64,000 bases of DNA from Candidatus Omnitrophota bacterium (GCA_023819375.1 JAMWDI010000001.1:107685-171684); one strand, 5' to 3'; counted from the first letter of the stretch, positions 1,448-39,405 are shown. Made by a program: numbers and translations. The notes: generated by a model from the letters alone, not told the origin.

Positions 1448-1475
1448 ATTTTATCTTTTTAAAAATTTTTGTCAA
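1448..1475 (-). promoter_or_regulatory. Sigma70-like promoter for the fur-permease operon (TTGACA, 16 nt, TAAAAT)
   Basis: On the minus strand, TTGACA at 1475..1470 and TAAAAT at 1453..1448, about 38 nt upstream of the fur ATG. GATAAAATTAT overlapping the -10 is a weak Fur-box-like sequence. Confidence 0.45.
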
Positions 1476-1492
1476 GTTAAATTTATAAAACC

Positions 1493-2293
1493 TTATTTTT
1501 CAAGGACTTCATTCATACTACCTGTTCTATATCCTTCAAGGTCAACTGTTATATATTTATAACCAAGCCTCTTAAATTTTTCTATAATCTTCTTTCTATA
1601 TTTAATCAACTTACTAATCTGATTCCTATCAACTTCAATTCTCGCCAATTCATTATAATCTCTTACTCTTACAATTTTAAATCCCAATGAATATAAAAAT
1701 CTCTCCCCTTTTTCAATTCTTTTCAACTTTTCCTCTACTATTTTTTCTCCATATGGTATTCTTGAAGCAAGGCAAGCCATTTGTGGTTTATTCCATGTTG
1801 GTAAATTTAACTTTTTTGAAATTTCTCTTATTTCCCTTTTTCCTATACCACAATCTTTAAAGGGAGAAATAACATTATAAATCTTTTTGGCCTTCTCCCC
1901 AGGTCTATAATCTTTTTCATCATCTTTATTTGTTCCATCAACAATAAATTTAAAATTATATTTCTTTTTTACTTCTTCAATTTTGCTGAATAATTCTTTT
2001 TTGCACCAAAAACATCTGTCAGGTGGGTTGTTGATAAAATTTCTATTTTTAAATTCCTCTGTTTTTAACTCAATTAATTTAACACCAAGTTTTTTACAGA
2101 AATCTTTTGCAAATTTCCTCTCTTCTTCTGGATAAACTGGAGAAATACCACAAACTGCAATTACATTATCTTTACCAAGAGTATCAACAGAAATTTTTAA
2201 CAAAAGAGAACTATCAACACCTCCAGAATATGCAACAATAATTTTTTCTAATCTTTTTATATATTCTTTTAACTTTTTAATTTTATCTACCAT
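1493..2293 (-). CDS. PP-loop ATP pyrophosphatase, LarE-like (TIGR00268-type) sulfurtransferase
   Basis: 266 aa. SGGVDSS PP-loop at the N-terminus, CxxC (DRCFWCKK) plus a conserved Cys in PQMACLASR. Last gene of the Fe-S/sulfur operon, start overlapping the nfu stop. Confidence 0.6.
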   Translation of the reverse strand: MVDKIKKLKEYIKRLEKIIVAYSGGVDSSLLLKISVDTLGKDNVIAVCGISPVYPEEERKFAKDFCKKLGVKLIELKTEEFKNRNFINNPPDRCFWCKKELFSKIEEVKKKYNFKFIVDGTNKDDEKDYRPGEKAKKIYNVISPFKDCGIGKREIREISKKLNLPTWNKPQMACLASRIPYGEKIVEEKLKRIEKGERFLYSLGFKIVRVRDYNELARIEVDRNQISKLIKYRKKIIEKFKRLGYKYITVDLEGYRTGSMNEVLEK

Positions 2294-2523
2294 TAATCTT
2301 CAACTTCGACAACTTCTTTTACTTCAGGAACTCTATCTTTTATAATAGCCTCTATTCTCATCTTCAAAGTTATTTGAGAAAAAGGACACCCTCTACAAGC
2401 ACCTGTTAATTTCACTTTAACAATTCCATCTTTTGCTTCAACTATTTCACAATCGCCACCTTCTGCTTGCAAAAAACCTCTTACATCTTCAATTGCTTTT
2501 TCAACCTTTTCTTTTAAATCCAT
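2293..2523 (-). CDS. NifU C-terminal domain (Nfu-type) Fe-S carrier protein
   Basis: 76 aa with the CxxC motif (TGACRGCP) characteristic of Nfu/NifU C-terminal domains. Confidence 0.75.
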   Translation of the reverse strand: MDLKEKVEKAIEDVRGFLQAEGGDCEIVEAKDGIVKVKLTGACRGCPFSQITLKMRIEAIIKDRVPEVKEVVEVED

Positions 2524-2542: not shown

Positions 2543-3277
2543 TTATTCTATGTCTTTCCCTAAAATTCCATTTTTTGTTAAATTTATATCTGGATATCCA
2601 TCATTTGCTGGTAAAATTTCTTTTGCTTTTCTAAATTCAACATGACCATCAACAAATAAATAATTTCTACTTCCTTCCCAACTCCACCATCCATTATTCC
2701 CACCTGTGTGATTATCAAGCCATTCTGCAATTATTATTTTTTTGGTAGGATATGCAACCTGTGAAATTTTTTGACCTACTGTAGGAAAAATTTTATTTTT
2801 ATCATATGTATAACTTTTGTCATCCATCTGGTTAATCTGTTCTGGAGAGTGATAAAAACTCATTGAATATCCATATGAAGTAGATTCCCATTTAGTTGGT
2901 GCAGTTTTATCAGAAGGACAGTGAAAAATATCTTTTGGTCTTGAAAATCTCTTTTTAATTTTGTCATAAGAATATGGATTTATATTTACAAAATAAGGGC
3001 CTATAAGAATTCTCCATCCACGTCCCATCCATAGCCAGTAACCTTCAGGAAATGGATCTTGATATGCAGGGAAAAAACCTTCATAATCATCCGTATACAT
3101 TGAAAACGCAATATATATCTGTTTTAAATTATTCATACATACTGCCTGTCTTGCCCTTTCTCTTGCTTTACTTAACGCAGGCAAAATTAAACTTGATAAA
3201 ATTGATACTATCATAACTACTACTAATAATTCAATTAAAACAAAACCATTACTTTTTATTTTTCTTTCTATAGTCAT
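2543..3277 (-). CDS. Prepilin-type N-terminal cleavage/methylation domain protein with DUF1559-like C-terminal region
   Basis: 244 aa. Short basic leader then G-FVLIELLVVVMIVSILSSLILP (class III signal). C-terminal NYLFVDGHVEF resembles the DUF1559 signature. Overlaps iscU by 29 nt. Confidence 0.65.
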   Translation of the reverse strand: MTIERKIKSNGFVLIELLVVVMIVSILSSLILPALSKARERARQAVCMNNLKQIYIAFSMYTDDYEGFFPAYQDPFPEGYWLWMGRGWRILIGPYFVNINPYSYDKIKKRFSRPKDIFHCPSDKTAPTKWESTSYGYSMSFYHSPEQINQMDDKSYTYDKNKIFPTVGQKISQVAYPTKKIIIAEWLDNHTGGNNGWWSWEGSRNYLFVDGHVEFRKAKEILPANDGYPDINLTKNGILGKDIE

Positions 3278-3638
3278 TAATTGCTGCTTTTAATCCTTCT
3301 TCTGCAAGTAATGAGCAATGTTTTTTTATTGGTGGAAGACCTCCAAGGAATTCAACCACATCTTTATTTGATATTTTTTCTGCTTCAGACAATGTCTTTC
3401 CTTTTGCAAGTTCAGTAACAACTGAACTTGTTGCAATTGCTGCAGCGCAACCAAAAGTTTCAAATTTTATATCCTCAATTATCTCTTCTCCCTTTTCATT
3501 TTTTCTAACTTTTATATATATCCACATTACATCACCACAAACAGGATTTCCAACTTTACCTATACCATCTGCATTTTCAATTCTTCCCATATTTCTTGGA
3601 TTTCTAAAATATTCAAGTACTTTTTCTGTATAGTCCAT
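3249..3638 (-). CDS. iscU: Fe-S cluster assembly scaffold IscU/NifU-N
   Basis: 129 aa. Three conserved Cys contexts (PVCGD, FGCAAAIATSS, KKHCS) as in IscU. Confidence 0.8.
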   Translation of the reverse strand: MDYTEKVLEYFRNPRNMGRIENADGIGKVGNPVCGDVMWIYIKVRKNEKGEEIIEDIKFETFGCAAAIATSSVVTELAKGKTLSEAEKISNKDVVEFLGGLPPIKKHCSLLAEEGLKAAINDYRKKNKK

Positions 3639-3673: not shown

Positions 3674-4585
3674 TTAAACATATTCAAGCATCCTCTCAAG
3701 CGATACTTTTGCTTTCTCTAAAATATCTGGTTTTAAATTTATCTCATATTTTTCTTCTTTCAAAGATAAATATAATTTTTCAATTGTTATCTTTTTCATA
3801 TTTGGACATATTTTACCAGAACCAAGCGAATAAAATTCTTTCTCAGGATTTTCTTTTTTAAGTCTATGCAATAATCCTTCTTCTGTTCCTATTATAAATA
3901 TTTTTGAGTTTGACTCTTTTGCTCTTTTTAACATACCAGAAGTTGAATATATACCATCTGCAAGTTTTTGAATTTCTGGGTCACATTCAGGATGAACAAT
4001 TATTTCAGCATTTGGATATTTTTCCCTTGCTTTTTTTACCTCTTCTACAGTAAATTTTCTATGAACAAAACAATAACCATCCCAACATATTATCTCTTTT
4101 TCAGAAACTTTTTGCTTCACATACCAACACAGGTTTTTATCAGGCAAAAATATAATTTTCTTTGCAGGAACATTTCTTACAACTATATCAGCATTTGCAC
4201 TTGTACAACAAACATCTGATATACTTTTAACATCTGCATTTGTATTTACATAGGAAACAATCCAGGCATCAGGATATTTTTCTTTCATCTTTAAAACATC
4301 TTGGTATTTTGCCATATCTGCCAAAGGACATCCAGCATCTAAATCTGGAAGTAAAACTTTTTTATCAGGTGATAATATTTTTGCTGTTTCAGCCATAAAT
4401 TTAACTCCACAAAATACAATAATTTTTGCATCTTTAACTTGGCTTGCCTTTCTTGCAAGTTCAAGAGAATCACCAACAAAATCAGCCAAATCCTGAATTT
4501 CTGGAATTTGATAATTATGGGCAAGAATTATTGCTTCTTTTTCTTTTTTTAATCTTAAAATTTCCTCAATCATTTCTTCTCCCAA
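3674..4585 (-). CDS. nadA: Quinolinate synthase
   Basis: 303 aa with NadA-typical length and conserved blocks (ILAHNYQ, VHPEC, Cys ligands). Confidence 0.8.
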   Translation of the reverse strand: MGEEMIEEILRLKKEKEAIILAHNYQIPEIQDLADFVGDSLELARKASQVKDAKIIVFCGVKFMAETAKILSPDKKVLLPDLDAGCPLADMAKYQDVLKMKEKYPDAWIVSYVNTNADVKSISDVCCTSANADIVVRNVPAKKIIFLPDKNLCWYVKQKVSEKEIICWDGYCFVHRKFTVEEVKKAREKYPNAEIIVHPECDPEIQKLADGIYSTSGMLKRAKESNSKIFIIGTEEGLLHRLKKENPEKEFYSLGSGKICPNMKKITIEKLYLSLKEEKYEINLKPDILEKAKVSLERMLEYV

Positions 4586-5739
4586 AATGGACTCATTTTT
4601 CTTAATTTTTCAACTATCTTTGGTAATACATCAAGAACTTTATCAACATCTTCTTCTTTATTATATTTACCAAGGGAAAACCTTAAAGAACCATGCGCGA
4701 TTTCAGGTGGAATTCCAATTGCAAGTAAAACATGACTTGGTTCAAGTGAACCAGATGTACATGCAGAACCACTTGAAGCATAAATTTTTTCAAAATCAAG
4801 ATTTAAAAGAATACTTTCTCCTTCAACATATTTAACACACAAATTTAATGTATTATATAAGCGATTTTCAGGATGTCCATTTATAATAATTTCAGGTATA
4901 TTTTCCATTATTCCTTTTTCAAGTTTATCTCTTAAATATTTCACCTTCTTTGCCTCTTCTTCCATTTCTTCTTTTGCTATCTCGCAGGCTTTTCCAAGAC
5001 CTATAATACCTGGAACATTATAAGTCCCTCCTCTTTTTCCTTTCTCCTGTTCTCCACCGTGAATAAATGTCTCAATTTTTGTTCCTTTTTTTATATAAAT
5101 TGCTCCAACTCCTTTGGGACCATAAAATTTATGTGCAGATAAAGAAATTATATCAACTCCAAGTTTTTTCACAGAAACAGGAATTTTGCCAACTGTCTGA
5201 ACACAATCTGAGTGAAAATATATACCATTTTCTTTTGCTATTTTTGCTATTTCTTCAATTGGCTGGATTGTTCCTATCTCATTATTTGCATGCATTATTG
5301 TTATTAAAATTGTTTCTTTTTTAATTGATTTTCTTATAAAATCAACATCAACAACTCCATATTTATCAACTGGTGCATATGTAATTTCATATCCAATTTT
5401 ACTTAAAAATTTACAGGTATTCAAAACAGCATGATGCTCTATCTGACTTGTAATTATATGATTTCCTTTATTTTTTAAAGCAAAAGATATTCCCTTTATA
5501 GCCCAGTTATCACTTTCTGTCCCTCCAGAAGTAAAGAATATTTCTTCTGGTTCTGCATCAATCAATTCTGCAACTTTCTGCCTTGCTTTTTCTATTTCTT
5601 TTTTATTTTCTCTTGCTATTTCATAAATTGAACTGGGATTTCCAAATTTTTCAAAAAAATAATCTTTCATAACTTCTAAAACCCTCGGATCCGTTGGTGT
5701 TGTCGCATTATAGTCCATATAAATTGTTTTATTTTCCAT
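4570..5739 (-). CDS. iscS: Cysteine desulfurase (NifS/IscS class, PLP-dependent)
   Basis: 389 aa. PLP-lysine region SLSAHKFYGPKGVGAIYI and active-site loop SSGSACTSG. Overlaps nadA by 16 nt. Confidence 0.85.
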   Translation of the reverse strand: MENKTIYMDYNATTPTDPRVLEVMKDYFFEKFGNPSSIYEIARENKKEIEKARQKVAELIDAEPEEIFFTSGGTESDNWAIKGISFALKNKGNHIITSQIEHHAVLNTCKFLSKIGYEITYAPVDKYGVVDVDFIRKSIKKETILITIMHANNEIGTIQPIEEIAKIAKENGIYFHSDCVQTVGKIPVSVKKLGVDIISLSAHKFYGPKGVGAIYIKKGTKIETFIHGGEQEKGKRGGTYNVPGIIGLGKACEIAKEEMEEEAKKVKYLRDKLEKGIMENIPEIIINGHPENRLYNTLNLCVKYVEGESILLNLDFEKIYASSGSACTSGSLEPSHVLLAIGIPPEIAHGSLRFSLGKYNKEEDVDKVLDVLPKIVEKLRKMSPFWEKK

Positions 5740-5748
5740 TTTTAAATT

Positions 5749-6153
5749 TTAAATGGTTGATATCATTGCATTCGTTGGACATCCCTTTATGCATAATTCA
5801 CATGCAATACATTTTTCTGGTTCAAATTTAACTTCATATGTATTTCTATTAAGGTATAAAGCCCCTGTTGGACACAAAGCAATACAAACTGAGCAATCCG
5901 TACATCTTTCTTTTATCATTCTTATATCACTCTCTATTAGTTGAATTTTTACTCCTTTACTTTTTAATTCTTCTACCGCATCAAAAACATTTTTTTCTTC
6001 TCCTGAAAAAGCAATTACAAGTGTTCCTTCCTCTTCAGGAGAGACAAAGGCTTTTAAAATGTTAAATTCAAGATTGTATTTCCTCACAATAGTTGAAATT
6101 ATTGGCTTATCAACTAAAACTGGCGGGAAATGCATTACAAATTTTTTTTCCAT
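5749..6153 (-). CDS. NIL-domain / 2x[4Fe-4S] ferredoxin fusion protein (homocysteine biosynthesis partner type)
   Basis: 134 aa. N-terminal NIL domain (LEFNILKA) followed by two CxxCxxCxxxCP ferredoxin motifs. Sits directly downstream of the DUF39 gene, the classic pairing. Confidence 0.7.
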   Translation of the reverse strand: MEKKFVMHFPPVLVDKPIISTIVRKYNLEFNILKAFVSPEEEGTLVIAFSGEEKNVFDAVEELKSKGVKIQLIESDIRMIKERCTDCSVCIALCPTGALYLNRNTYEVKFEPEKCIACELCIKGCPTNAMISTI

Positions 6154-6154
6154 A

Positions 6155-7348
6155 TTATACCTCCTTCATTGGTTTAAATTTATATCCTGATTCTGGACCA
6201 GGGAAATAGAAAATTGGTTCAGTTAATAAAAATTCACCACTTTCAATCCACTTTTTTAAAATTTCTGCTATTTCTTTTGCCTTTTTATAACTTGACAGAG
6301 AACCGGTTGGAATTTCTTTTCCCATCAATTTTATCTTCCCACTTTTCAGTTGTGAGTAATTTACATAATCTAAAATATTTCCTGTTGAATTTGGATAATC
6401 ATAACTGTAATCAACTACAGGTGCATAAATCTCTTCATCAGGTATACTTACCCAATTTAATATTTCTTCATTCAAAATTGGTATTGGAATACCAACACCA
6501 ACTATTAAACTCGTTCCATATCCTGTTAAACTTGCTCCTTTTAAAAATTCTACTTTCATCTGTTTTAAATCACCAATTAAAGCAAGCGTTGCTCCAGGAA
6601 TAGTAGGTACTCCATTTTCCCTTCGTTTTACACCTGGATTATATTGAGTCCCCCACCAACAAACATACCCAATCCCTCCTCCAAGAAAAATCCTTGTCCC
6701 AAATCCAATAGTTTTCAAATATGGATCTTTTAAAAGTGGTGATAATTGCCCTGCTGAACAATAATTTGCATTTCCGAGATTTGGTTTTAAGACTCCCATG
6801 TAAGTATAAATTGTTTTATTTGAAAGATTGACTGCAACATTATAATTCTGATAACAATTTCTTGGATTAAAAAGTATTGCTTCATTTATATCATTTATTG
6901 TAATTTTTGTCTTTAAATATTTTTTTGGATAACAGTCAGTGCCATATGCATAGGCAACAAGTTCAATTTCTTTTCCACTTACTAAATCTTCAATTACATG
7001 TCCACCACCATATTTAAACTCGCCTGGATATTTAGTATTCCTTGGATCATCATCTGGCAAAGCAGTCGCTCCAAGATAAACATCAACAGCAGCAAGTCCA
7101 GAATAAGCAGGGACATTATTTAAATATACTCTTCCTCCACCCATTTTGATTTTTTCTTTTGAATGACCAAAATTTAAAAATACACCAGAAGAACACATAG
7201 GGCCAAAAGTTCCAGTTGTTACAACATCTACCTCTTTTGCGAGTTTTTTAACATTTGTAGATTTTTTTAATTCAATTATTTCATCTGCTGTTAAAACTAC
7301 TACTTCTCCTCTTTTTATTTTTTCATTTATTTCTCTTATCGTTTTCAT
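6155..7348 (-). CDS. DUF39/COG1900 homocysteine biosynthesis protein (putative aspartate-semialdehyde sulfurtransferase)
   Basis: 397 aa. GTFGPMCSSG-type glycine-rich core. Adjacent to a NIL-ferredoxin gene and between cysK and the cysteine desulfurase. Confidence 0.6.
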   Translation of the reverse strand: MKTIREINEKIKRGEVVVLTADEIIELKKSTNVKKLAKEVDVVTTGTFGPMCSSGVFLNFGHSKEKIKMGGGRVYLNNVPAYSGLAAVDVYLGATALPDDDPRNTKYPGEFKYGGGHVIEDLVSGKEIELVAYAYGTDCYPKKYLKTKITINDINEAILFNPRNCYQNYNVAVNLSNKTIYTYMGVLKPNLGNANYCSAGQLSPLLKDPYLKTIGFGTRIFLGGGIGYVCWWGTQYNPGVKRRENGVPTIPGATLALIGDLKQMKVEFLKGASLTGYGTSLIVGVGIPIPILNEEILNWVSIPDEEIYAPVVDYSYDYPNSTGNILDYVNYSQLKSGKIKLMGKEIPTGSLSSYKKAKEIAEILKKWIESGEFLLTEPIFYFPGPESGYKFKPMKEV

Positions 7349-7360
7349 TTTTAACTCCTT

Positions 7361-8272
7361 TTAAAAAACTGATAGATACCTTTCACCTGTGTCTGGCAAA
7401 ATAACAACTATTATTTTACCACTATTTTCTTTTCTTTTCCCAATCTTTATTGCAGCAAAAGTAGCAGCACCTGATGAAATTCCACATAATATCCCTTCTT
7501 CTCTTGCTAATCTTTTTGCTGTCTCTATTGCATTCTCGTCGGATACTTTTATTATTTCATCAATTACTTTTAAATTCAATACATCTGGTATAAAACCAGC
7601 ACCGATACCTTGAATTTTATGTCTTCCTGAAAACCCTCCAGATAAAACAGGAGATTTTTCTGGTTCAACAGCAACAATTTTTACATCTTTTTTCCTCTGT
7701 TTTAGCACCTCTCCTACGCCAGTTATTGTTCCTCCAGTCCCTACCCCAGCCACAAATATATCAATTTTCCCATCTGTATCTCTCCATATTTCTTCTGCGG
7801 TTGTCTTTCTATGTATCTCTGGATTTGCTGGATTTTTAAACTGTTGCGGCATAAACGAATTTTTATATTTTTTTAACAATTCTTCTGCTTTTTTTACTGC
7901 TCCTGTCATACCTTCATCTGCTGGTGTTAATACAATTTCAGCACCAAACAAAGATAATAATTTCCTTCTCTCTATACTCATACTCTCTGGCATTGTTAAA
8001 ATTAATTTATATCCTCTTTGTGCACATACAAAAGCAAGACCAATCCCAGTATTTCCACTTGTTGGTTCAATTATAACTGTATCTTTATTTATAAGTCCTT
8101 TTTTTTCAGCATCTTCAATCATACTTACTGCAATCCTATCTTTTACTGAACCACATGGGTTAAAAAATTCAAGTTTTGCATAAATCTCTGCGTAACATCC
8201 TTTCACAACTTTATTCAATTTTACAAGTGGAGTATTCCCAATCAATTCTGTTATATCCTTTGCAAATTTCAT
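7361..8272 (-). CDS. cysK: Cysteine synthase / O-acetylserine sulfhydrylase family (PLP-dependent)
   Basis: Track ORF 7361..8326; I prefer the ATG at 8272 ([19 protein letters not shown]), which has a GGGGAG Shine-Dalgarno 6-10 nt upstream. PLP-binding SVKDR, glycine loop [10 protein letters not shown]. Confidence 0.8.
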
Positions 8273-8288
8273 AAATTTCTCCCCATTT

Positions 8289-8738
8289 TTAGATTTCGTA
8301 AAAGATAACTTTTTTGTCTCTTTCATTCAATTCTTTTTGCTTTTTTATTAATTCATCTAGAGTTATATTATCAAGATATTCCAAAATTTTTTCTTTTATA
8401 TTACACCATAATTTTCTCGCCACACATATTTCACTTCTTTCACATATTTTGCTTTTTTCAACACATTCCGTTGGAGATATTGTGCCTTCAAGGATTTCAA
8501 TTATTTCTTTAATTTTAATTTCTGATGGATCTCTCAAAAAAGCATATCCTCCCTTGCCACCTTTTGCACTTCTTAAAATTCCTGCTTTTTTCAATGTAAG
8601 CATAATATGCTCAAGATATCTTTCTGATAAATTCTGCCTTTTTGCAATATCTTTAACAAAAATTGGTTTTCCTTTATAATAAACTCCAAGATCTATTAAT
8701 GCTCTTAATCCATACCTTGTTCTTGTTGAAATTTTCAT
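8289..8738 (-). CDS. Rrf2-family transcriptional regulator (IscR/NsrR-like, probable Fe-S sensor)
   Basis: 149 aa. N-terminal HTH ([11 protein letters not shown]), C-x6-C-x5-C cluster ([14 protein letters not shown]) matching the cluster-ligand spacing of Fe-S Rrf2 proteins. First gene of the operon. Confidence 0.85.
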
Positions 8739-8744
8739 TTTAGT

Positions 8745-8804
8745 TATTTATTATTTTTGTTATCATATTACTAATATTATACTTAAAATTTTAAAAAATG
8801 TCAA
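8745..8804 (-). promoter_or_regulatory. Consensus promoter (TTGACA, 17 nt, TATAAT) plus candidate operator for the Rrf2-led operon
   Basis: Minus strand: TTGACA (8804..8799), 17-nt spacer, TATAAT (8781..8776), then ATTAGTAATATGATAACAAAAATAATAAA. Contains the inverted repeat ATATTA-G-TAATAT. The same block recurs upstream of hcp. Confidence 0.55.
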
Positions 8805-9033
8805 ATTTTTTTCTTCCAATTAATTCCTTCCATTTTTTCTCGCCTATACATTCTTTTGCATATTTACACCAGTCAATACAGGATGGCATTTCTCTATAAA
8901 CATAACTTTTACACTTTGGACATCTTGTTCTTACTTCATCACTAAATATTTCAACTTCATATCCACATTTTTCACATTTTTTAACTTCAACTTTTAAAAA
9001 TCTTGGGTCTATTCCAGGACATTTCATAACCAA
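8791..9033 (-). CDS. Small Cys-rich zinc-ribbon/rubredoxin-like protein
   Basis: 80 aa with 8 Cys including CEKCGY and CPKC pairs. Overlaps the upstream ferredoxin-domain gene by 10 nt; last gene of the hcp operon. Confidence 0.4.
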   Translation of the reverse strand: MVMKCPGIDPRFLKVEVKKCEKCGYEVEIFSDEVRTRCPKCKSYVYREMPSCIDWCKYAKECIGEKKWKELIGRKKFDIF

Positions 9034-9854
9034 CCTTCCTCTAATATTTCTCCCTTTAAACTTATTACAACTTTTTTTATAGGAATTTTCTTACCACTTT
9101 TTTTAACCCCTTCTTCAACTATTTTCAAAAGACCACTGCAACAAGGAACTTCCATTATAGCAACTGTTATTGTATTTATATTGTTATTAGTAACTATTTG
9201 ACTTATTTTTTCTATATATCTATCAATACCTGTATCAAGTTTAGGGCAGGCAATTATAATTGTTTTCCCTTTTATAAAATCATTATGAAAATTACCATAT
9301 GAATATGCGGTGCAGTCAGCAGCAAAAAGCAAATCCACCTTTTTAAAATATGGAGCAGATGGACTTACAAGATGAAGTTGTATTGGCCATTGTTTAAGTT
9401 GAGATTTAATTTCTACATTTGGTTTACTCTCTTCAGTTTCTTCTCTTCTATCAACAATTTTCACTCCGGGACAACATGAAACTTCAAAAATTTCTGATAT
9501 GTCTATCTCAATATTTTTTTCTTTTAATACCTCAAGTGCCTGTTTTAGATATTCTGTTTCACCATGTTCTTTCAAATGTTTTAAATGAGCAATAATCGTA
9601 TTTTTCCCTTTTTTTATTATATTTTCCATTGTCTTTTTCTCATCATACTCTTCTGCTTCTTTTTCAACAATTTTTATTGCACCAACCGGACAACTACCGA
9701 TACAAGCACCAAGTCCATCACAAAATAAATCACTTATAAGTCGTGCTTTTCCATCTATAATCTGTAATGCACCTTCTGGACAATTGGGGATACACTTTCC
9801 ACATCCAGTACATTTTTCCTCATCAATTTCAATAATTTTTCTTTTCATAAACAC
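9024..9854 (-). CDS. 4Fe-4S dicluster ferredoxin-domain protein (putative Hcp redox partner)
   Basis: 276 aa. N-terminal CTGCGKCIPNCP and CDGLGACIGSCP motifs; C-terminal domain with CCPG and CCSG pairs. Immediately downstream of hcp. Confidence 0.55.
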   Translation of the reverse strand: MFMKRKIIEIDEEKCTGCGKCIPNCPEGALQIIDGKARLISDLFCDGLGACIGSCPVGAIKIVEKEAEEYDEKKTMENIIKKGKNTIIAHLKHLKEHGETEYLKQALEVLKEKNIEIDISEIFEVSCCPGVKIVDRREETEESKPNVEIKSQLKQWPIQLHLVSPSAPYFKKVDLLFAADCTAYSYGNFHNDFIKGKTIIIACPKLDTGIDRYIEKISQIVTNNNINTITVAIMEVPCCSGLLKIVEEGVKKSGKKIPIKKVVISLKGEILEEGWL

Positions 9855-9857
9855 CCC

Positions 9858-11162
9858 CTATTTTAAAATTTCCTTTAAATCCTTTTCTGGTTCTTCAACA
9901 AGTTTTAAATTAAATTCACTTACCAAATATTTTAAAATTTCTTCATTTATCCATGCAGGTATAATTGGACCTATTCTAATCCCTTTAATTCCAAGATATA
10001 ATAAAGACCATAAAATCGCTACTGCTTTCTGTTCCATCCACATTAAAAAATAAGAAACAGGTAAATCATTAATATCTTTAACATTAAAAAGTTCTGCCAA
10101 AGAAGAGATTATATCTATTCCAACTATTGCATCATTACACTGGCCTATATCTATAAGTCGTGGTACCCCTTCAATATCACCAAGAGCCAAATCATTAAAT
10201 CTAAATTTTCCACAAGCAAGAGTTATTACAATTGTATCCTTTGGTAATATTTCAACAAGTTTTCTAAAATATTCATTTTTATTTGTAGGACTATCACATC
10301 CTCCAATAACAAAAACTCTTCTTATTTTACCGTTTTCTATCAGTTCCTTTATTTTTTCTTTTGAAGACAAAATTGATGATAAAGAAAAACCAGTTGTTAA
10401 AATAGTATCTCCATTTTTTTCAGGTAAATCAGGTAATGTTTTTGCTTTTTCAATGACCTCTGAAAAATCATATCCAGTTATATGTTTAACTTCTGGAAGT
10501 CCTACAATGCCTGTTGTAAAAATTCTATCTTTATATTCATCTTTTGGAATTAAAACACAATTGGAACTTCCAACAATACAAGCAGGAATTTCTGAAAATA
10601 ATTTTTTCTGGTCATACCATGCCTTTCCCAAATTTCCAATAAGATTATCATATTTTCTTATGCCTGGATATCCATGAGCAGGTAAAAGTTCTGAATGAGT
10701 ATAAACATTTATTCCTTTATCTTTGGATTGTTTTAAAATTTCCTCAAGAACTTTTAAACTATGACCTGTAACTATTATACCTTTCCCTTTTCTTGTTCCT
10801 GTAAATACTTCAACTGACTCTGGTTCTCCATATGTTTCAATATGTGCTTTTTTTAACAATTTCATTGTTTCTATATTTATTTTTCCAATATCAAGGGCAA
10901 GTTTAATAAATTTTTCAGTATCAAAATTCACATTTGTTAATGTTGAATATAAAGTTTCAACAAGAAATTTCTCAAGTTTACTGTTTCTATATCCAAGTTC
11001 AGATGCATGATAAAGATAAGCACTTATACCTTTAAGACCAAAAATTAAATTATCCTGCAATCTTGATAATGTTGGACTTTTACCACATACACCATAATTT
11101 ATACATCCTTTTCCCTGACTTGTTTGACTACACTGATAACAAAACATTTTAAAATCTGCCAT
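9858..11162 (-). CDS. hcp: Hybrid cluster protein (prismane; hydroxylamine reductase)
   Basis: 434 aa. Hallmark N-terminal MFCYQCSQT...GC motif and multiple conserved Cys/His/Glu ligand blocks. GGAGG Shine-Dalgarno upstream. Confidence 0.85.
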
Positions 11163-12797: not shown

Positions 12798-13466
12798 ATG
12801 GAAAAAACAAGAAATATTTTATTCTGGCTTGGACAAAAAGAGGAAAGAGAAATACTCAATGATGAACTTAAACATGTTGAAATATCTTTAAAATGTGTAG
12901 AAGAAATGAAAAATGCGGTTGAATGCTTTGTTAAAGGGAAAATAGAGGAAAAGAATACACATATAGCAAATGTAAAAAATTTTGAACATCTGGGAGATGA
13001 TATAAGAAAAAAAATTACACTTGAATTGTCAAAGGGCTTACTTTTTCCTCCGGATAGAGAAGACCTCTTAATTTTAAATGAAGGACTAAATGATATTGCT
13101 GATGGGGCAAAGGGAATTGCAAGATTACTTGAATTTTTTGAGGAAAAAATAACAGAAGATATGGGAAATTCTTTACTTTCATTTTCTATAATTACATTGA
13201 AAGCAGGAGAAAAACTCAAAGATGCAATTGATTCATTAATAAAAAATGATATTCAGAAATTACTTGAAGATTGTGCTAATATTGAAACACTTGAAGAAGA
13301 GGGAGATGACAGAAGACGAGAACTTATCAGAGAATTAATTAAAGAAAATTTATCTGCTCCAAAAGCAATTCTCCTTTATGAAATTATTGATACTATGGAA
13401 AATTTGACAGATAGTATAAAAAAAGCAGGTGATTTGGTTAGAATCTTAGGTATAAAATCAAAATGA
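12798..13466 (+). CDS. DUF47/PhoU-like phosphate transport regulator (Pit accessory protein)
   Basis: Track ORF 12648..13466; I place the start at ATG 12798 (MEKTRNILFWLG), 3 nt after the pit stop. Helical bundle with DUF47-like blocks; typical partner of PiT. Confidence 0.65.
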   Translation: MEKTRNILFWLGQKEEREILNDELKHVEISLKCVEEMKNAVECFVKGKIEEKNTHIANVKNFEHLGDDIRKKITLELSKGLLFPPDREDLLILNEGLNDIADGAKGIARLLEFFEEKITEDMGNSLLSFSIITLKAGEKLKDAIDSLIKNDIQKLLEDCANIETLEEEGDDRRRELIRELIKENLSAPKAILLYEIIDTMENLTDSIKKAGDLVRILGIKSK

Positions 13467-14314
13467 ATTCTTTTAATCCAGAAAGTTATAAAAAGAAAAT
13501 TTACAAAATAATTTCAAAATATAAACTAGTTCAAGAAAATGACAAAATCTTCATAGGGCTTTCCGGAGGAAAAGATAGTGGTTGTGCATGTTTTGTTTTA
13601 TCTGAATATATTAGAGAAAAAAAATTGAAATGTGAGTTAGTTGCTTTTTATATTAAACTTGGAGATTTTATACCTGAGAGAGTAATTGAAACAATTAAAA
13701 AACAAACTGAAGTAGCACAAATTCCTTTAAAAATTTATGATATTAAGGATTTTGGAATATCCTATAAAAAAATAGGAACACTTAATAGACCTATATGTAG
13801 TAGTTGTGGAACAATTAAAAGGTATCTCATGAATAAAATAGCAAGAGAAGAAGGTGCCACAAAATTATGTACAGGACATCATGGAGATGATTTTATTGTT
13901 TTTTTTATGAAAAATATTCTTGGAAAAAATATTGAATGGATCTCAAAATTTACTCCATTACTTGAAGGAAAAGGAAAACAACTTACAAGAATAAGGCCAT
14001 TATTTTTTGGCAATGGAGAAGATAATAAAAACTTCTGTGATTTTATAAATTTCCCTTATATTCAAGAAGATGTTTGTCCTCATTTTTTCCTGAAACAAAA
14101 AATTGATAAAAGAAGAGAAAAATGGTATGAAGTCATAAGAGAAATATCAAAATGGCAACCAAATTTTAGAGAATATTTTTTAGAAGGAATTATAGAAATT
14201 GCAAAAATTTTATCTTTAAATCAGAAAGAACCCTTGGAATGTAAAATATGTGGAGAACCAACGAATAAAGAAATATGCTCTTTTTGCAGGTTATTAAAAT
14301 TTCATAAAGATTAA
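13463..14314 (+). CDS. PP-loop ATPase of the TtcA/TtuA (tRNA thiolation) type
   Basis: 283 aa. SGGKDS PP-loop, CSSCG and GHHGDD motifs, C-terminal CxxC...CxxC zinc finger. ATGA overlap with the DUF47 gene. Confidence 0.55.
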   Translation: MNSFNPESYKKKIYKIISKYKLVQENDKIFIGLSGGKDSGCACFVLSEYIREKKLKCELVAFYIKLGDFIPERVIETIKKQTEVAQIPLKIYDIKDFGISYKKIGTLNRPICSSCGTIKRYLMNKIAREEGATKLCTGHHGDDFIVFFMKNILGKNIEWISKFTPLLEGKGKQLTRIRPLFFGNGEDNKNFCDFINFPYIQEDVCPHFFLKQKIDKRREKWYEVIREISKWQPNFREYFLEGIIEIAKILSLNQKEPLECKICGEPTNKEICSFCRLLKFHKD

Positions 14315-36011: not shown

Positions 36012-37148
36012 ATGTTTACTATTTTCATTCCATATAGAATTTGTCCACTTGGGGCTCATATTGATCATCAAAAAGGGAAAGTCCTTGGAATTACTATTGA
36101 TAGAGGAACTATTCTGAAATTTGAAAAAATAGAAGGAAAGATAAAATTAAAAAGTATAAATTTTAATGAAGAAGTTGAATTTGAAATCAATGAAGAATTG
36201 GATAAAGAGGGAAAATGGTTTGATTTACTTAAAGGTTGTGTTTATATATTAAGAGATACTTTCAAAATTAAGAATGGAATTAAAGGAGAAATTCTGGGTC
36301 AACTTCCAAGTGGTGGCATTGGTTCCTCAGCAAGTTGTGGTCTTGCTTATCTGCTTGCTCTTGAATATGTAAATAACTTAAATATTCCTAAAGAGGAAAA
36401 CATTTTTTTATTTCAAAAAGTAGAAAATGAATATCTTAATGTTAAAAGTGGAATTCTTGACCAGTCAACAATTTTATTAAATAATAGTGACAAAAATTCA
36501 ATACTCTATCTTGATTGTAGAGATATAAAATATGAAAACGTTAAATCCAAAAATGAGATTGATTATTCTATTGTTATGGTCTACTCAGGGATTGAGAAAG
36601 TATTGCATGATACAGGCTATAACAAAAGAGTTGAAGAATGTAAAATGGCAGGGAAGCAAATTTTAGAATTTTTGGGCAAAAATTATGAAGGAGATATTTA
36701 TTTGAGAAATATTGATAAAGAGGTTTTTTTAAAATATAAAGAACAATTGCCAGAAAATTTAAGAAAAAGGGCTGAACATTTTTATAGTGAAATGGAAAGA
36801 GTTGAAAAGGGAATAGAATTTTGGAAATCAGGAGAAATAAAAGAATTTGGGAAATTAATTAAAGAATCTGGAGAAAGTTCAATAAAAAATTATGAGTGTG
36901 GAGGAAAAGAATTGATTAAAATTTATGAAATTCTAAATTCAATTAGGAATGTTTATGGGGCAAGATTTTCAGGGGCAGGGTTTCGTGGCTGGTGTTTTGG
37001 ATTTATTAAAAATGAAGAAAATGTAAAAAAAGAAATTAAAGAAATATTAGAAAATGAATATTTAAAGATTTTCCCACAATATAAGGAAAAATTTAAGATT
37101 ATTTTTGTGGATAAAAAACTTTCAATAGATATTAAGTCATTTATCTAA
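36012..37148 (+). CDS. GHMP kinase, galactokinase-like
   Basis: 378 aa. Galactokinase-type N-terminal signature (RICPLGAHIDHQKG), GHMP ATP-binding motif PSGGIGSSASCGLA. Confidence 0.7.
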   Translation: MFTIFIPYRICPLGAHIDHQKGKVLGITIDRGTILKFEKIEGKIKLKSINFNEEVEFEINEELDKEGKWFDLLKGCVYILRDTFKIKNGIKGEILGQLPSGGIGSSASCGLAYLLALEYVNNLNIPKEENIFLFQKVENEYLNVKSGILDQSTILLNNSDKNSILYLDCRDIKYENVKSKNEIDYSIVMVYSGIEKVLHDTGYNKRVEECKMAGKQILEFLGKNYEGDIYLRNIDKEVFLKYKEQLPENLRKRAEHFYSEMERVEKGIEFWKSGEIKEFGKLIKESGESSIKNYECGGKELIKIYEILNSIRNVYGARFSGAGFRGWCFGFIKNEENVKKEIKEILENEYLKIFPQYKEKFKIIFVDKKLSIDIKSFI

Positions 37149-38147
37149 TAAGATTTTTGGAACAACTTCTGAATTTTCAATAAACTCTGGAAATTTCCTT
37201 TCAACAAAAACTCTTCTTAAATTATTAACTGTAAAGTCCCCCATTTTTTTAATTGTCTCATAAGTATACCTTCCTAAATGAGGCATAATTATTACATTTT
37301 TAAACTTCAAAAGTGGATTATCTTTTAATATTTGTTTCATCTCAATTGCATCTTCTGCATATCCCCCGATTTTTCCTGATTTGAGATACTTTATAAGACT
37401 TTTTTCATCTATTAAATCTTTATGAGACGTATTAACAATTATAACTCCCTCTTTCATAATTTCAAATTCTTTTTCTCCTATCATATGATAGGTTTTTTCA
37501 TTTAAAGGGCAATGAAAAGAAATAATATCACAATTTTTACAGATATTTTCTAAACTGGAAGGCATTGCACTTCTTTTTATAATTTCTTCTTCTGTAAGTA
37601 ATGGATCATACGCATAAACATTCATTCCAAAGCCATTTTTTAAAATTTCACAAACTCTTGTTCCAACATTGCCTATCCCCAAAAGTCCTACGTTTTTATC
37701 TTTTAATTCAATTCCAACCAGTTCTATTCTTCTTCCCCATATTTCATTTTTCATAAACTCATAATTTTGATTTAATTTCCTTGCCATTAAAAGTATTAAT
37801 CCCACTGTATATTCAGCCATGGCATTTCTTTGTATCTCAAGTGGAAATCTACAAACTATTATTCCAAATTCTGTTGCAGATTTTATGTCAATATTTGAGT
37901 CTGCTATACCATGTCTTGAAATAATTACAAGTTTTTTCAAATTTTCAAGAATATTTCTGGAATAATAAGGTGAAAGTCCTATAATTAATCCATCAAAGTC
38001 AGATAATTCTTCAATTATTCTTTTTTCAGAAACATCGGAAGGAAAATTAATTCTTTCAACTTCTGAAAATTCTTTTAATTTTTCAATATGCTCAGGATAA
38101 ATTATCCCAAAACTTGTAGAATTAACTATTGCAATTTTATACTTCAT
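37137..38147 (-). CDS. D-isomer-specific 2-hydroxyacid dehydrogenase family protein (NAD-binding)
   Basis: Track ORF 37137..38174; start placed at ATG 38147 (MKYKIAIVNS) with AAGGAG Shine-Dalgarno. Rossmann GLLGIGNVG; overlaps the LarA-like gene. Confidence 0.7.
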   Translation of the reverse strand: MKYKIAIVNSTSFGIIYPEHIEKLKEFSEVERINFPSDVSEKRIIEELSDFDGLIIGLSPYYSRNILENLKKLVIISRHGIADSNIDIKSATEFGIIVCRFPLEIQRNAMAEYTVGLILLMARKLNQNYEFMKNEIWGRRIELVGIELKDKNVGLLGIGNVGTRVCEILKNGFGMNVYAYDPLLTEEEIIKRSAMPSSLENICKNCDIISFHCPLNEKTYHMIGEKEFEIMKEGVIIVNTSHKDLIDEKSLIKYLKSGKIGGYAEDAIEMKQILKDNPLLKFKNVIIMPHLGRYTYETIKKMGDFTVNNLRRVFVERKFPEFIENSEVVPKILLDK

Positions 38148-39405
38148 TTTTATCTCCTTTTTTATAAAGTTCATCTATGTCAGGGATATAACCATCTTTT
38201 CTTCTATACAGAATTTCTCCTGCATTTTTTACAACTAAAATTCCCTCATTTTCTTTATTTTCAAATTCTTCTATTTTTATAAGGTTGTAATCCATGTAAC
38301 CCAAGTTAACTTTTTTACAAATTTCTTCAGAAATTGAGGTTGCAAGTATAACTTCAATCCTTGGTTTTTCAATTCCATTAATATATGTTCCTATCCCTTT
38401 CACATGAGTTGAATGAGCAAGTATACATCCCGGATAATTTTTAAACTTATTCCATTGTTTCAAAAAATAATCTCTCGTGTGATATCCAATTTTCATTAAA
38501 TCTTTTCCATGGGTATACGAAATTTCCTTTACATGGGGTGCATAAATTATTAACTTCCCTCCATCTTCTACAACAGGTTCAAGTTTATACATACATTTTC
38601 CAGCAGTCCATATGTCTTCATACATTTCTGGTGCTATTGAAATTACAAAATTATAACTTCTATCAACATATTTGATATTAATCTGACTTGACAAATCTGC
38701 TGCTTTTTCCCATGCATCTACTTCTCCAATGAATAATCCCATTACTTTTTTTCCCTTTATAACACTACAAATTAACGTCTTTGGGATTTTTATAAAATTT
38801 GCTGCAATATTCAATAAATCTCTTACCGGTGTCTTTTTGAAGCCATTTATTTTTGGATTTGTAATTAATGCTCCAAGCCAGTGAAATTTATTTAGAAATT
38901 TTGGTCCAGAAATTCCCGGAAAAAAATATTTGTATCCACCAGAAAAGCCGACTACCTCGTGAGGAAATACAGGACCGTAGATAATAATTTCATCATAATT
39001 TAAAATCAAGGAATTAATTTCTATTTCTATTTTTTCATCCATTAACCCATTTGTTATTCTTTTCACATCTAATCTTTCAATAACTCCTATTTTGATTAAT
39101 TTTTCTGTTTTATTCCATTCATGTTGATAAATATTAAAATACTTTTCTTCACCATTTAGATGTAAGAAATTTTTTACTTTTTCCTCCGACATAATAGGAT
39201 GTGTCCCAAGTGCAATTAGGAAATCAAGTTTTTTAACTTTTGATGATAAAATATCAATCAAAAATTTAAAGAATAGATATGTTGGACCTGAACGAGTATT
39301 ATCTGGAATTATTACAATTATCTTTTTGTTTTTTAAATCCCTTTTATTAAGTTCTTTTTGGCAGATTTCATATATTTCTTTTTCAGAAAGTTCTTTTGTA
39401 TTCAT
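38137..39405 (-). CDS. LarA-like nickel-pincer-nucleotide (NPN) cofactor-dependent 2-hydroxyacid racemase/epimerase family protein
   Basis: 422 aa. PDNTR motif, ALGTH block, GFSGGYK with a His 17 residues later, consistent with the cofactor-tethering Lys and Ni-ligand His of LarA. Confidence 0.6.
   Translation of the reverse strand: MNTKELSEKEIYEICQKELNKRDLKNKKIIVIIPDNTRSGPTYLFFKFLIDILSSKVKKLDFLIALGTHPIMSEEKVKNFLHLNGEEKYFNIYQHEWNKTEKLIKIGVIERLDVKRITNGLMDEKIEIEINSLILNYDEIIIYGPVFPHEVVGFSGGYKYFFPGISGPKFLNKFHWLGALITNPKINGFKKTPVRDLLNIAANFIKIPKTLICSVIKGKKVMGLFIGEVDAWEKAADLSSQINIKYVDRSYNFVISIAPEMYEDIWTAGKCMYKLEPVVEDGGKLIIYAPHVKEISYTHGKDLMKIGYHTRDYFLKQWNKFKNYPGCILAHSTHVKGIGTYINGIEKPRIEVILATSISEEICKKVNLGYMDYNLIKIEEFENKENEGILVVKNAGEILYRRKDGYIPDIDELYKKGDKNEV

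Follow-up and report, generated by a model that had tools for sequence, protein, structure and literature searches.

Which kind of sulfur-inserting enzyme stands at the end of an iron–sulfur (Fe-S) operon in a bacterium of the Candidatus Omnitrophota, from where does it obtain its sulfur, and which cofactor does it help to make? The question is raised by one gene in a 64,000-nucleotide stretch of DNA (GCA_023819375.1 JAMWDI010000001.1:107685-171684; the window is this whole stretch), whose product had been described from the sequence alone (hereafter the original prediction) as a LarE-like PP-loop sulfurtransferase. Our answer, which we hold with considerable confidence, is that the gene product is a genuine LarE of the non-sacrificial class that depends on a [4Fe-4S] cluster, probably fed by the Fe-S and sulfur operon in which it lies. 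The gene itself is as follows.

1493..2293, minus strand: LarE, predicted [4Fe-4S]-type (CxxC-C) PP-loop sulfur insertase; intact open reading frame with an ATG start, 266 amino acids

Family and fold are directly established. Pfam holds no LarE model, and the family call was made with the NCBIfam equivalog model TIGR00268, which matched residues 4-261 of the query on profile positions 2-259 of 259 with 329.5 bits against a cutoff of 150. The LarE of L. plantarum (5udq) aligned with E=6e-53 (183 bits, about 30% identity) and with zero gaps across 259 residues. Residues 2-253 also aligned, with E=5e-24 and 88 bits, to 8cnz, which together with 8cp3 and 8cp4 we take to be the [4Fe-4S] LarE of Methanococcus maripaludis, deposited in the PDB as 'NAD_synthase domain-containing protein'. 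An AlphaFold (AF2) model built from the alignment reached a pLDDT of 92.3 and a pTM of 0.85 and shows the LarE fold, an N-terminal PP-loop domain followed by a C-terminal domain; when this predicted structure was compared with the PDB by Foldseek, the best 50 matches were all LarE chains (TM 0.76-0.86). The family is large: at E<=1e-30 it takes in 2,415 clusters of 50% identity. The query carries AYSGGVDSS at residues 21-29, DRCFWCKK at residues 92-99 and PQMACLASR at residues 170-178, and its PP-loop, S23-G-G-V-D-S28 (SGGxDS), is invariant across all homologs aligned.

The original prediction had itself named a different PP-loop family, such as NAD synthetase or QueC, as an outcome that would overturn it, and TtuA/TtcA, ThiI, GMP synthase and TilS may be added to that list. 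In support of such an assignment, Pfam gives only generic matches to the N-terminal PP-loop region of the query, residues 7-80 (NAD_synthase 36 bits, ATP_bind_3 27.9 bits). However, the alternatives in NCBIfam score 15-39 bits against cutoffs of 64-745, whereas the LarE model matches at full length. The runner-up is an NAD synthase model (39 bits, cutoff 479), and the NadE models together reach 26-39 bits in the PP-loop region only, below their cutoffs of 64-479. TilS (32 bits, cutoff 94) and GuaA (30 bits, cutoff 339) also stay below threshold, and the QueC, TtuA, TtcA, NcsA and ThiI models of Pfam and NCBIfam do not match the query at all. Nor was any THUMP, rhodanese, zinc-finger or amidotransferase domain found in it. 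Because of the TIGR00268 score, the matches to LarE structures and the LarE-only set of 50 fold matches, the query is a LarE and not an NAD synthetase, QueC, TtuA, TtcA, ThiI, TilS or GMP synthase; NCBIfam scores, PDB sequence matches and Foldseek effectively refute another family, and we give it almost no credence. The LarE-like family, the SGGVDSS PP-loop and the CxxC in DRCFWCKK, all proposed earlier, were recovered in the intact reading frame, and both motifs are conserved among homologs.

The source of the sulfur depends on the class of LarE, which can be read from its cysteines. Cys94, Cys97 and Cys174 form the CxxC-C motif of the query. In an alignment of 40 sequences S23, G24, G25, D27, S28, R93, C94, C97, K98, C174, R178, R209 and R211 are invariant, and the same set is invariant across 80 sequences (79 LarEs from 80 diverse loci and the query). 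Under a strict regular expression all three motifs occur in 117 of the 120 nearest homologs listed, and in 134 of 150 representatives of 50%-identity clusters. This conservation of motifs and residues, which is observed directly, is a family signature, to judge from the sequences far above chance. As described by Chatterjee et al. 2022 (PMC9283937), most LarE homologs carry CxxC-C, with the third cysteine one residue off the Cys176 of L. plantarum LarE. The CxxC-C of T. maritima LarE binds a [4Fe-4S] cluster needed for activity; this enzyme retains its own sulfur and becomes catalytic with IscS and cysteine, probably through a [4Fe-5S] intermediate (PMC9283937). The same study assigned substrate phosphate binding to Ser180, Arg212 and Arg214.

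The gapless alignment with 5udq sets Cys176 of L. plantarum on Ala173 of the query and Ser177 on Cys174, while Trp97 is replaced by Cys94 and Ala100 by Cys97. The original prediction had put the cysteine of PQMACLASR at the position of the sulfur-donating cysteine; its conservation stands, but not that position, as Cys174 sits one residue downstream of Cys176. Its broader proposal, that the three cysteines fit the [4Fe-4S]-dependent variants, agrees with the alignment: they correspond in sequence to the published CxxC-C ligands (PMC9283937), and RCYNCK and CMATR of 8cnz align with RCFWCK and CLASR of the query, so that CxxC and distal cysteine are both matched. The equivalents of Ser180, Arg212 and Arg214 are S177, R209 and R211, predicted to bind the phosphate of P2CMN; across the 80 sequences the arginines are invariant and Ser/Thr is conserved at the first position. 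Taken together, the alignments support placing the query in the [4Fe-4S]-dependent, non-sacrificial LarE class, in which it would bind a cluster and act catalytically.

A sacrificial LarE would donate the sulfur of its own cysteine, be left with dehydroalanine and serve a single turnover. The NCBI label of the identical protein, MCM8771583.1, and of its relatives ('ATP-dependent sacrificial sulfur transferase LarE') points to this type and is derived from TIGR00268. However, the sacrificial type is recognized by a lone cysteine at position 176 and no CxxC, whereas the query has Ala173 there and cysteines in place of Trp97 and Ala100. Moreover, T. maritima LarE shares the motif, loses none of its sulfur and works with a [4Fe-4S] cluster (PMC9283937), and the operon of the query also carries genes for a desulfurase, a scaffold and a carrier. 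We therefore consider single-turnover donation very improbable. Because the protein falls in the non-sacrificial, cluster-dependent class, the 'sacrificial' name is wrong for it, and for the CxxC-C class the NCBI label is a misnomer.

Comparison with the characterized enzymes shows where the query agrees with each and where it departs. With T. maritima LarE, which was compared through its description in PMC9283937 and not by direct alignment, it shares SGGxDS, CxxC with a distal cysteine one residue past Cys176 of L. plantarum, and the phosphate-binding Ser/Arg, and is expected to be likewise non-sacrificial and recharged by a desulfurase; unlike the query, the T. maritima protein has a fourth cysteine beside its motif, where Ala173 of the query represents the commoner state. 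The 8cnz protein shares the CxxC and the distal cysteine, but is archaeal, more distant than L. plantarum LarE (88 versus 183 bits), and differs by several indels in its C-terminal half. L. plantarum LarE (5udq and related structures) has the same fold (TM 0.8-0.86), the PP-loop and the phosphate-binding residues, yet depends on a single consumed Cys176 and is encoded in a larA-E operon, whereas the query LarE lies in an Fe-S operon.

That operon comprises ten genes in the order Rrf2, CysK, HcyBio, NIL-ferredoxin, NifS, NadA, IscU, a pilin-like gene, Nfu and LarE. The genes upstream of LarE, with two promoter-like sites, are given here from the first gene towards LarE.

8776..8804, minus strand: sigma-70-like promoter TTGACA-17-TATAAT, 12/12, upstream of Rrf2 (consensus match only)
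8289..8738, minus strand: Rrf2-family regulator (IscR/CymR-like), first gene of the operon (TIGR00738, 130 bits, cutoff 73)
7361..8326, minus strand: cysteine synthase of the PALP family, CysK-like (PF00291)
6155..7348, minus strand: HcyBio (DUF39) homocysteine-biosynthesis protein (PF01837)
5749..6153, minus strand: NIL-domain 2x[4Fe-4S] ferredoxin, partner of HcyBio (PF09383 and Fer4 families)
4570..5739, minus strand: cysteine desulfurase NifS, predicted sulfur donor (TIGR03402, 601.9 bits, cutoff 530.75; PF00266)
3674..4585, minus strand: quinolinate synthase NadA, a [4Fe-4S] enzyme (NF006878, 437.1 bits, cutoff 294)
3249..3638, minus strand: IscU/NifU-N type Fe-S scaffold, 129 amino acids (PF01592; TIGR03419 (NifU_clost) 185.1 bits, just below its cutoff of 187.9; TIGR01999 144 bits)
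2543..3277, minus strand: prepilin-type N-methyl / DUF1559 (SBP_bac_10) protein (PF07596; N-terminus matches pseudopilin models)
2293..2523, minus strand: Nfu-type (NifU C-terminal domain) Fe-S carrier, 76 amino acids, with a CRGC motif (PF01106; C-terminal part of the TIGR02000 and NfuA models)
1448..1475, minus strand: promoter-like site, 11/12, in the 82-nt gap between LarE and Fur (consensus match only)

All ten genes run head to tail on the minus strand with intergenic gaps of -38 to +35 nt, and the profiles bear out the original placement of LarE beside a desulfurase, IscU and Nfu. The stop codon of Nfu overlaps the start of LarE (TAATG), which implies translational coupling of the two. 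Together with the promoter-like site upstream of Rrf2, the packing of the genes fits co-transcription of LarE with NifS, IscU and Nfu, as it would be predicted from sequence. The packing is the stronger argument, and the region holds no more promoter-like sites in total than expected from shuffling. The 11/12 site in the LarE–Fur gap suggests that Fur has its own transcript and that the operon ends with LarE; a terminator scan 3' of LarE found no convincing terminator. NifS, 2.3 kb upstream of LarE, is the desulfurase available in the same operon and may hand its sulfur to LarE.

Two elements of the operon call for separate comment. The prepilin-like gene, which overlaps IscU by 29 nt and sits between IscU and Nfu, has no apparent link to Fe-S assembly; a homolog occupies the same slot in the Ratteibacteria relative L089 (4313..5083), while in relative L090 the slot holds an RseC_MucC gene and one for an unassigned 363-residue protein. 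The pair of HcyBio and NIL-ferredoxin is known from methanogens, where it makes homocysteine from sulfide; here the pair (5749..7348, minus strand) is found in a bacterial operon with CysK and Rrf2. Directly upstream of Rrf2, on the same strand (9024..11162, minus), are a hybrid-cluster protein (Prismane, 434 amino acids) and a multi-[4Fe-4S] ferredoxin; the ferredoxin also precedes Rrf2 in L090, whose sequence ends short of where the hybrid-cluster gene would lie. Past LarE, beyond the start of the window (L001 3083..12679), lies an oxidative-stress and metal island with genes for Fur, an ArsP/HMA permease, rubredoxin, a flavo-diiron (ODP) protein, rubrerythrins, ferritins, desulfoferrodoxin, peroxiredoxins, glutaredoxin and a thioredoxin-reductase-like protein, and this island is mostly kept in L089.

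The supply chain that these genes suggest can be set out as follows. Cys94, Cys97 and Cys174 would bind a [4Fe-4S] cluster whose fourth iron bears a non-core sulfide, and this sulfide would attack the acyl-adenylate to give a thiocarboxylate; two rounds of such transfer would yield P2TMN. IscU would assemble the cluster and Nfu, coupled to LarE in translation, would hand it over. CysK would produce cysteine, which NifS would convert to a persulfide that reloads the non-core sulfide. LarC, which like LarB would be encoded elsewhere in the genome, would then metallate P2TMN to the nickel-pincer nucleotide (NPN) for a GntE2-like LarA homolog at 38 kb.

This last gene bears on the question of which cofactor is served.

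38137..39405, minus strand: LarA homolog, a 422-amino-acid Lar_N protein, GntE2-like, predicted NPN-dependent hexonate epimerase (PF09861, 77.8 bits)

Its position, 35.8 kb from LarE, agrees with the LarA-like gene reported earlier at about 36 kb. In LarA, Lys184 tethers the cofactor and His200 is a nickel ligand; in an alignment with 2yjg, the LarA of T. thermosaccharolyticum, equivalents of His108, His174, Lys184 and His200 are all present in the homolog. The best solved relative is 4NAR (E=1e-62), the T. maritima GntE2, an NPN-dependent D-gluconate 2-epimerase (PMC7583248). From its sequence, the LarA homolog is the likely user of the pincer cofactor, and because it keeps the cofactor and catalytic residues the organism appears to need that cofactor. 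The gene shares 38 nt with that of a D-isomer 2-hydroxyacid dehydrogenase (37137..38174) and has a GHMP kinase (36012..37148) for a neighbour; the stretch 36012..39405 has the appearance of a small module for sugar acids. In relative L098 a canonical LarA is encoded 3.3 kb from the Nfu–LarE pair.

The two remaining genes of the pathway do not appear in the vicinity. Pfam annotation detects neither LarB nor LarC within the window, and custom hidden Markov models (HMMs) for both return nothing at E<=10 in its six-frame translation, in agreement with the original prediction; the HMMs also find nothing in the relatives' loci L089-L110. When the AT-rich LarC of L045 served as the seed of a homolog search, the matches listed belonged only to an Actinomycetota-like clade.

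Is the association of LarE with Fe-S genes a peculiarity of this locus? Gene order and its conservation are directly established here. The block HcyBio–NIL-ferredoxin–NifS–NadA–IscU–(X)–Nfu–LarE, where X is the variable slot, is kept in relatives with 54-77% LarE identity, among them a Ratteibacteria metagenome-assembled genome and several metagenome contigs, and the Nfu–LarE pair is conserved in L089-L094, L098, L099, L023 and L037. A wider survey covered at least 80 diverse CxxC-C LarE loci with 39-53% identity to the query, the closest genomes not being among the matches listed, and neighbouring genes were labelled by phmmer. Within 5 kb of LarE, 16 of 80 loci have LarB and/or LarC only, 20 have only genes of the set Rrf2, CysK, NifS, IscU, Nfu, MnmA, NadA, HcyBio and NIL-ferredoxin (at least one), 2 have both lar and Fe-S/sulfur neighbours and 42 have neither kind. 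In about a quarter of the loci, from at least eight phyla, LarE thus stands beside NifS, IscU, Nfu, MnmA, NadA or CysK; such loci belong to Omnitrophota, Saganbacteria/WOR-1, several Deltaproteobacteria lineages, Planctomycetota, Verrucomicrobiota, Actinomycetota, Bacteroidota and others. Counted over whole loci, MnmA is present in 15, NifS in 9, NadA in 7; a CysK ortholog adjoins LarE in 8 of the 80. Of the labelled genes no more than 150 nt from LarE, 38 of 42 share its strand. The gene that most often neighbours CxxC-C LarE, lar genes aside, is that of the tRNA 2-thiouridine synthase MnmA, which in many cases directly adjoins LarE in the same orientation (as at L009 8919..10004 and L051 6256..7329, among L009-L088). 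A desulfurase thus appears to be grouped with its PP-loop sulfur acceptors. A search of the literature for LarE with IscU, Nfu, MnmA or quinolinate synthase found, within the literature searched, no description of such an operon association.

The same survey gives its substance to another explanation, in which the LarE fold and the cluster chemistry are retained but the enzyme has another substrate or a housekeeping role: it would thiolate another carboxylate, such as a NadA-linked pyridine nucleotide or a dinucleotide pincer precursor, and would not serve LarA. The quarter of loci with housekeeping sulfur and Fe-S genes have no LarB or LarC within 10 kb of LarE, and neither gene was found in the window and its flanks of about 17 kb. 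NadA directly adjoins LarE in four unrelated phyla (L009, L029, L048 and L088), even where NifS is not adjacent. Fusions of LarE to YjeF_N, the NAD(P)HX epimerase domain of nicotinamide-nucleotide repair, and to rhodanese occur in one representative each. A search anchored on LarE has turned up a dinucleotide (NPAD) pincer enzyme, and substrate variation therefore exists within the family (PMC13524815).

Against a separate substrate stands, in the first place, the lack of any division between the two kinds of locus. The catalytic, ligand and substrate-binding residues, the phosphate-binding Ser/Arg included, are all identical between lar-operon and Fe-S-operon LarEs; the columns that best separate the operon classes are variable, apparently non-catalytic positions that belong neither to the motifs nor to the binding residues. 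The two groups interleave in a neighbour-joining tree, and neither the tree nor the alignment of 80 sequences revealed a distinct paralog clade or class-specific residues for Fe-S-operon LarEs. In the second place, three-cysteine LarEs adjoin LarB and/or LarC in 18 of 80 loci, and a CxxC-C LarE is fused to a LarB (AIRC) domain in P0264 and to a LarC domain in P0288. The Brocadia locus L048 holds NadD, LarC, NadA and LarE within 6 kb (NadD called by eye from its N-terminal motif), a gene set that ties the NadA link to pincer synthesis. Because of these LarB and LarC neighbours, the fusions and the L048 gene set, CxxC-C LarE is tied to pincer synthesis, and the window itself holds a LarA homolog that requires the cofactor. 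With the lack of a split between operon classes, these signs indirectly suggest that the nickel-pincer pathway of the organism is intact. NadA catalyses the first committed step towards NaMN and NaAD, which are precursors of the pincer cofactor, and NadA and CxxC-C LarE are both three-cysteine [4Fe-4S] enzymes; the link between them may reflect the origin of the cofactor from NaAD as well as a common need for clusters. On balance another substrate appears unlikely, and a LarE that serves the pincer cofactor remains our preferred reading.

Fusions of LarE were followed in the 150 diverse representatives. The partners, besides LarB and LarC, are RNase H-like (in three representatives), histidine phosphatase, YjeF_N, a CysN-like GTPase and rhodanese with a second PP-loop domain (P0248, P0333, P0349, P0293, P0319, P0271 and P0331), where some may be artefacts of gene calling, and also a zinc ribbon. 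No fusion of Nfu or IscU to LarE was found among these representatives.

Several observations weigh against a pincer-dedicated LarE supplied by its own operon. In some 20 of 80 loci the companions of LarE are not lar genes but housekeeping genes (MnmA, NifS, NadA, CysK), a pattern also compatible with a thiolation role that is broader or different. The adjacency of NifS and Nfu may reflect the shared regulation of oxygen-sensitive Fe-S proteins and not a direct hand-off. Because the neighbour-joining tree has a star-like shape with little resolution, the interleaving of the operon classes is weak evidence of orthology. Finally, LarB and LarC are absent, by HMM, from the 64-kb window and from about 17 kb of same-organism flanks (L001-L008). 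One may picture LarE, here and in many other anaerobic lineages, as a constitutive client of the housekeeping NifS–IscU–Nfu machinery and not as an accessory of a lar operon, with Nfu as its dedicated donor (perhaps rebuilding a cluster consumed for its sulfur, as NfuA does for lipoyl synthase), and/or NadA-linked LarEs that thiolate a pyridine nucleotide other than P2CMN for pincer enzymes other than LarA; we regard this picture, too, as having little probability next to a LarE that makes the pincer cofactor and draws on its operon.

The proposed arrangement has parallels in other systems. TtuA, NcsA and TtcA, the tRNA thiolases, resemble the mechanism suggested for LarE in that ATP adenylylates the substrate and sulfide is supplied from the open iron of a three-cysteine [4Fe-4S] cluster, an analogy drawn in PMC9283937; they belong to another family with another substrate, and the query scores nothing on their models. 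The window encodes a second candidate cluster-type PP-loop thiolase of the TtuA/TtcA-like kind (13463..14314, plus strand; NF049949, 162 bits where the cutoff is 450); its gene neighbours are PhoU-like and PHO4 phosphate transporter genes. Gene clusters of the type Rrf2(IscR/CymR)–CysK–NifS/IscS–IscU–MnmA occur in Firmicutes and other anaerobes. They share with the present operon the regulator, the cysteine synthase, the desulfurase, the scaffold and a sulfur-accepting PP-loop enzyme, whereas here LarE, NadA, Nfu, HcyBio with NIL-ferredoxin and the pilin-like gene are added and the operon is without MnmA. NfuA rebuilds the cluster of the lipoyl synthase LipA, which is consumed as a sulfur source. 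The likeness is that an Fe-S enzyme which inserts sulfur is paired with a dedicated [4Fe-4S] carrier of the Nfu type, but in the published model of LarE it is a replaceable non-core sulfide that is used, and the cluster is not destroyed.

The query is an ordinary member of the common, majority class of cluster-dependent LarEs, and the known chemistry is unchanged by it. What the locus adds concerns supply. The [4Fe-4S] route of LarE was demonstrated in vitro with the heterologous IscS of E. coli, and in T. maritima the desulfurase genes lie far from larE (PMC9283937), whereas here NifS, IscU and Nfu are encoded in the operon of LarE itself. The presence of these three genes upstream of a CxxC-C LarE, in an association that recurs in at least eight phyla, constitutes genomic support for a supply chain fed by a desulfurase, and the operon context nominates Nfu as the physiological donor of the cluster to LarE. 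The locus also exposes a problem of annotation, since NCBI calls this protein and its relatives 'sacrificial' though their class is non-sacrificial. The field has stated a need for help in making active, cluster-containing LarE in E. coli (PMC11796402), and the operon offers a ready-made set of genes for co-expression of such an enzyme.

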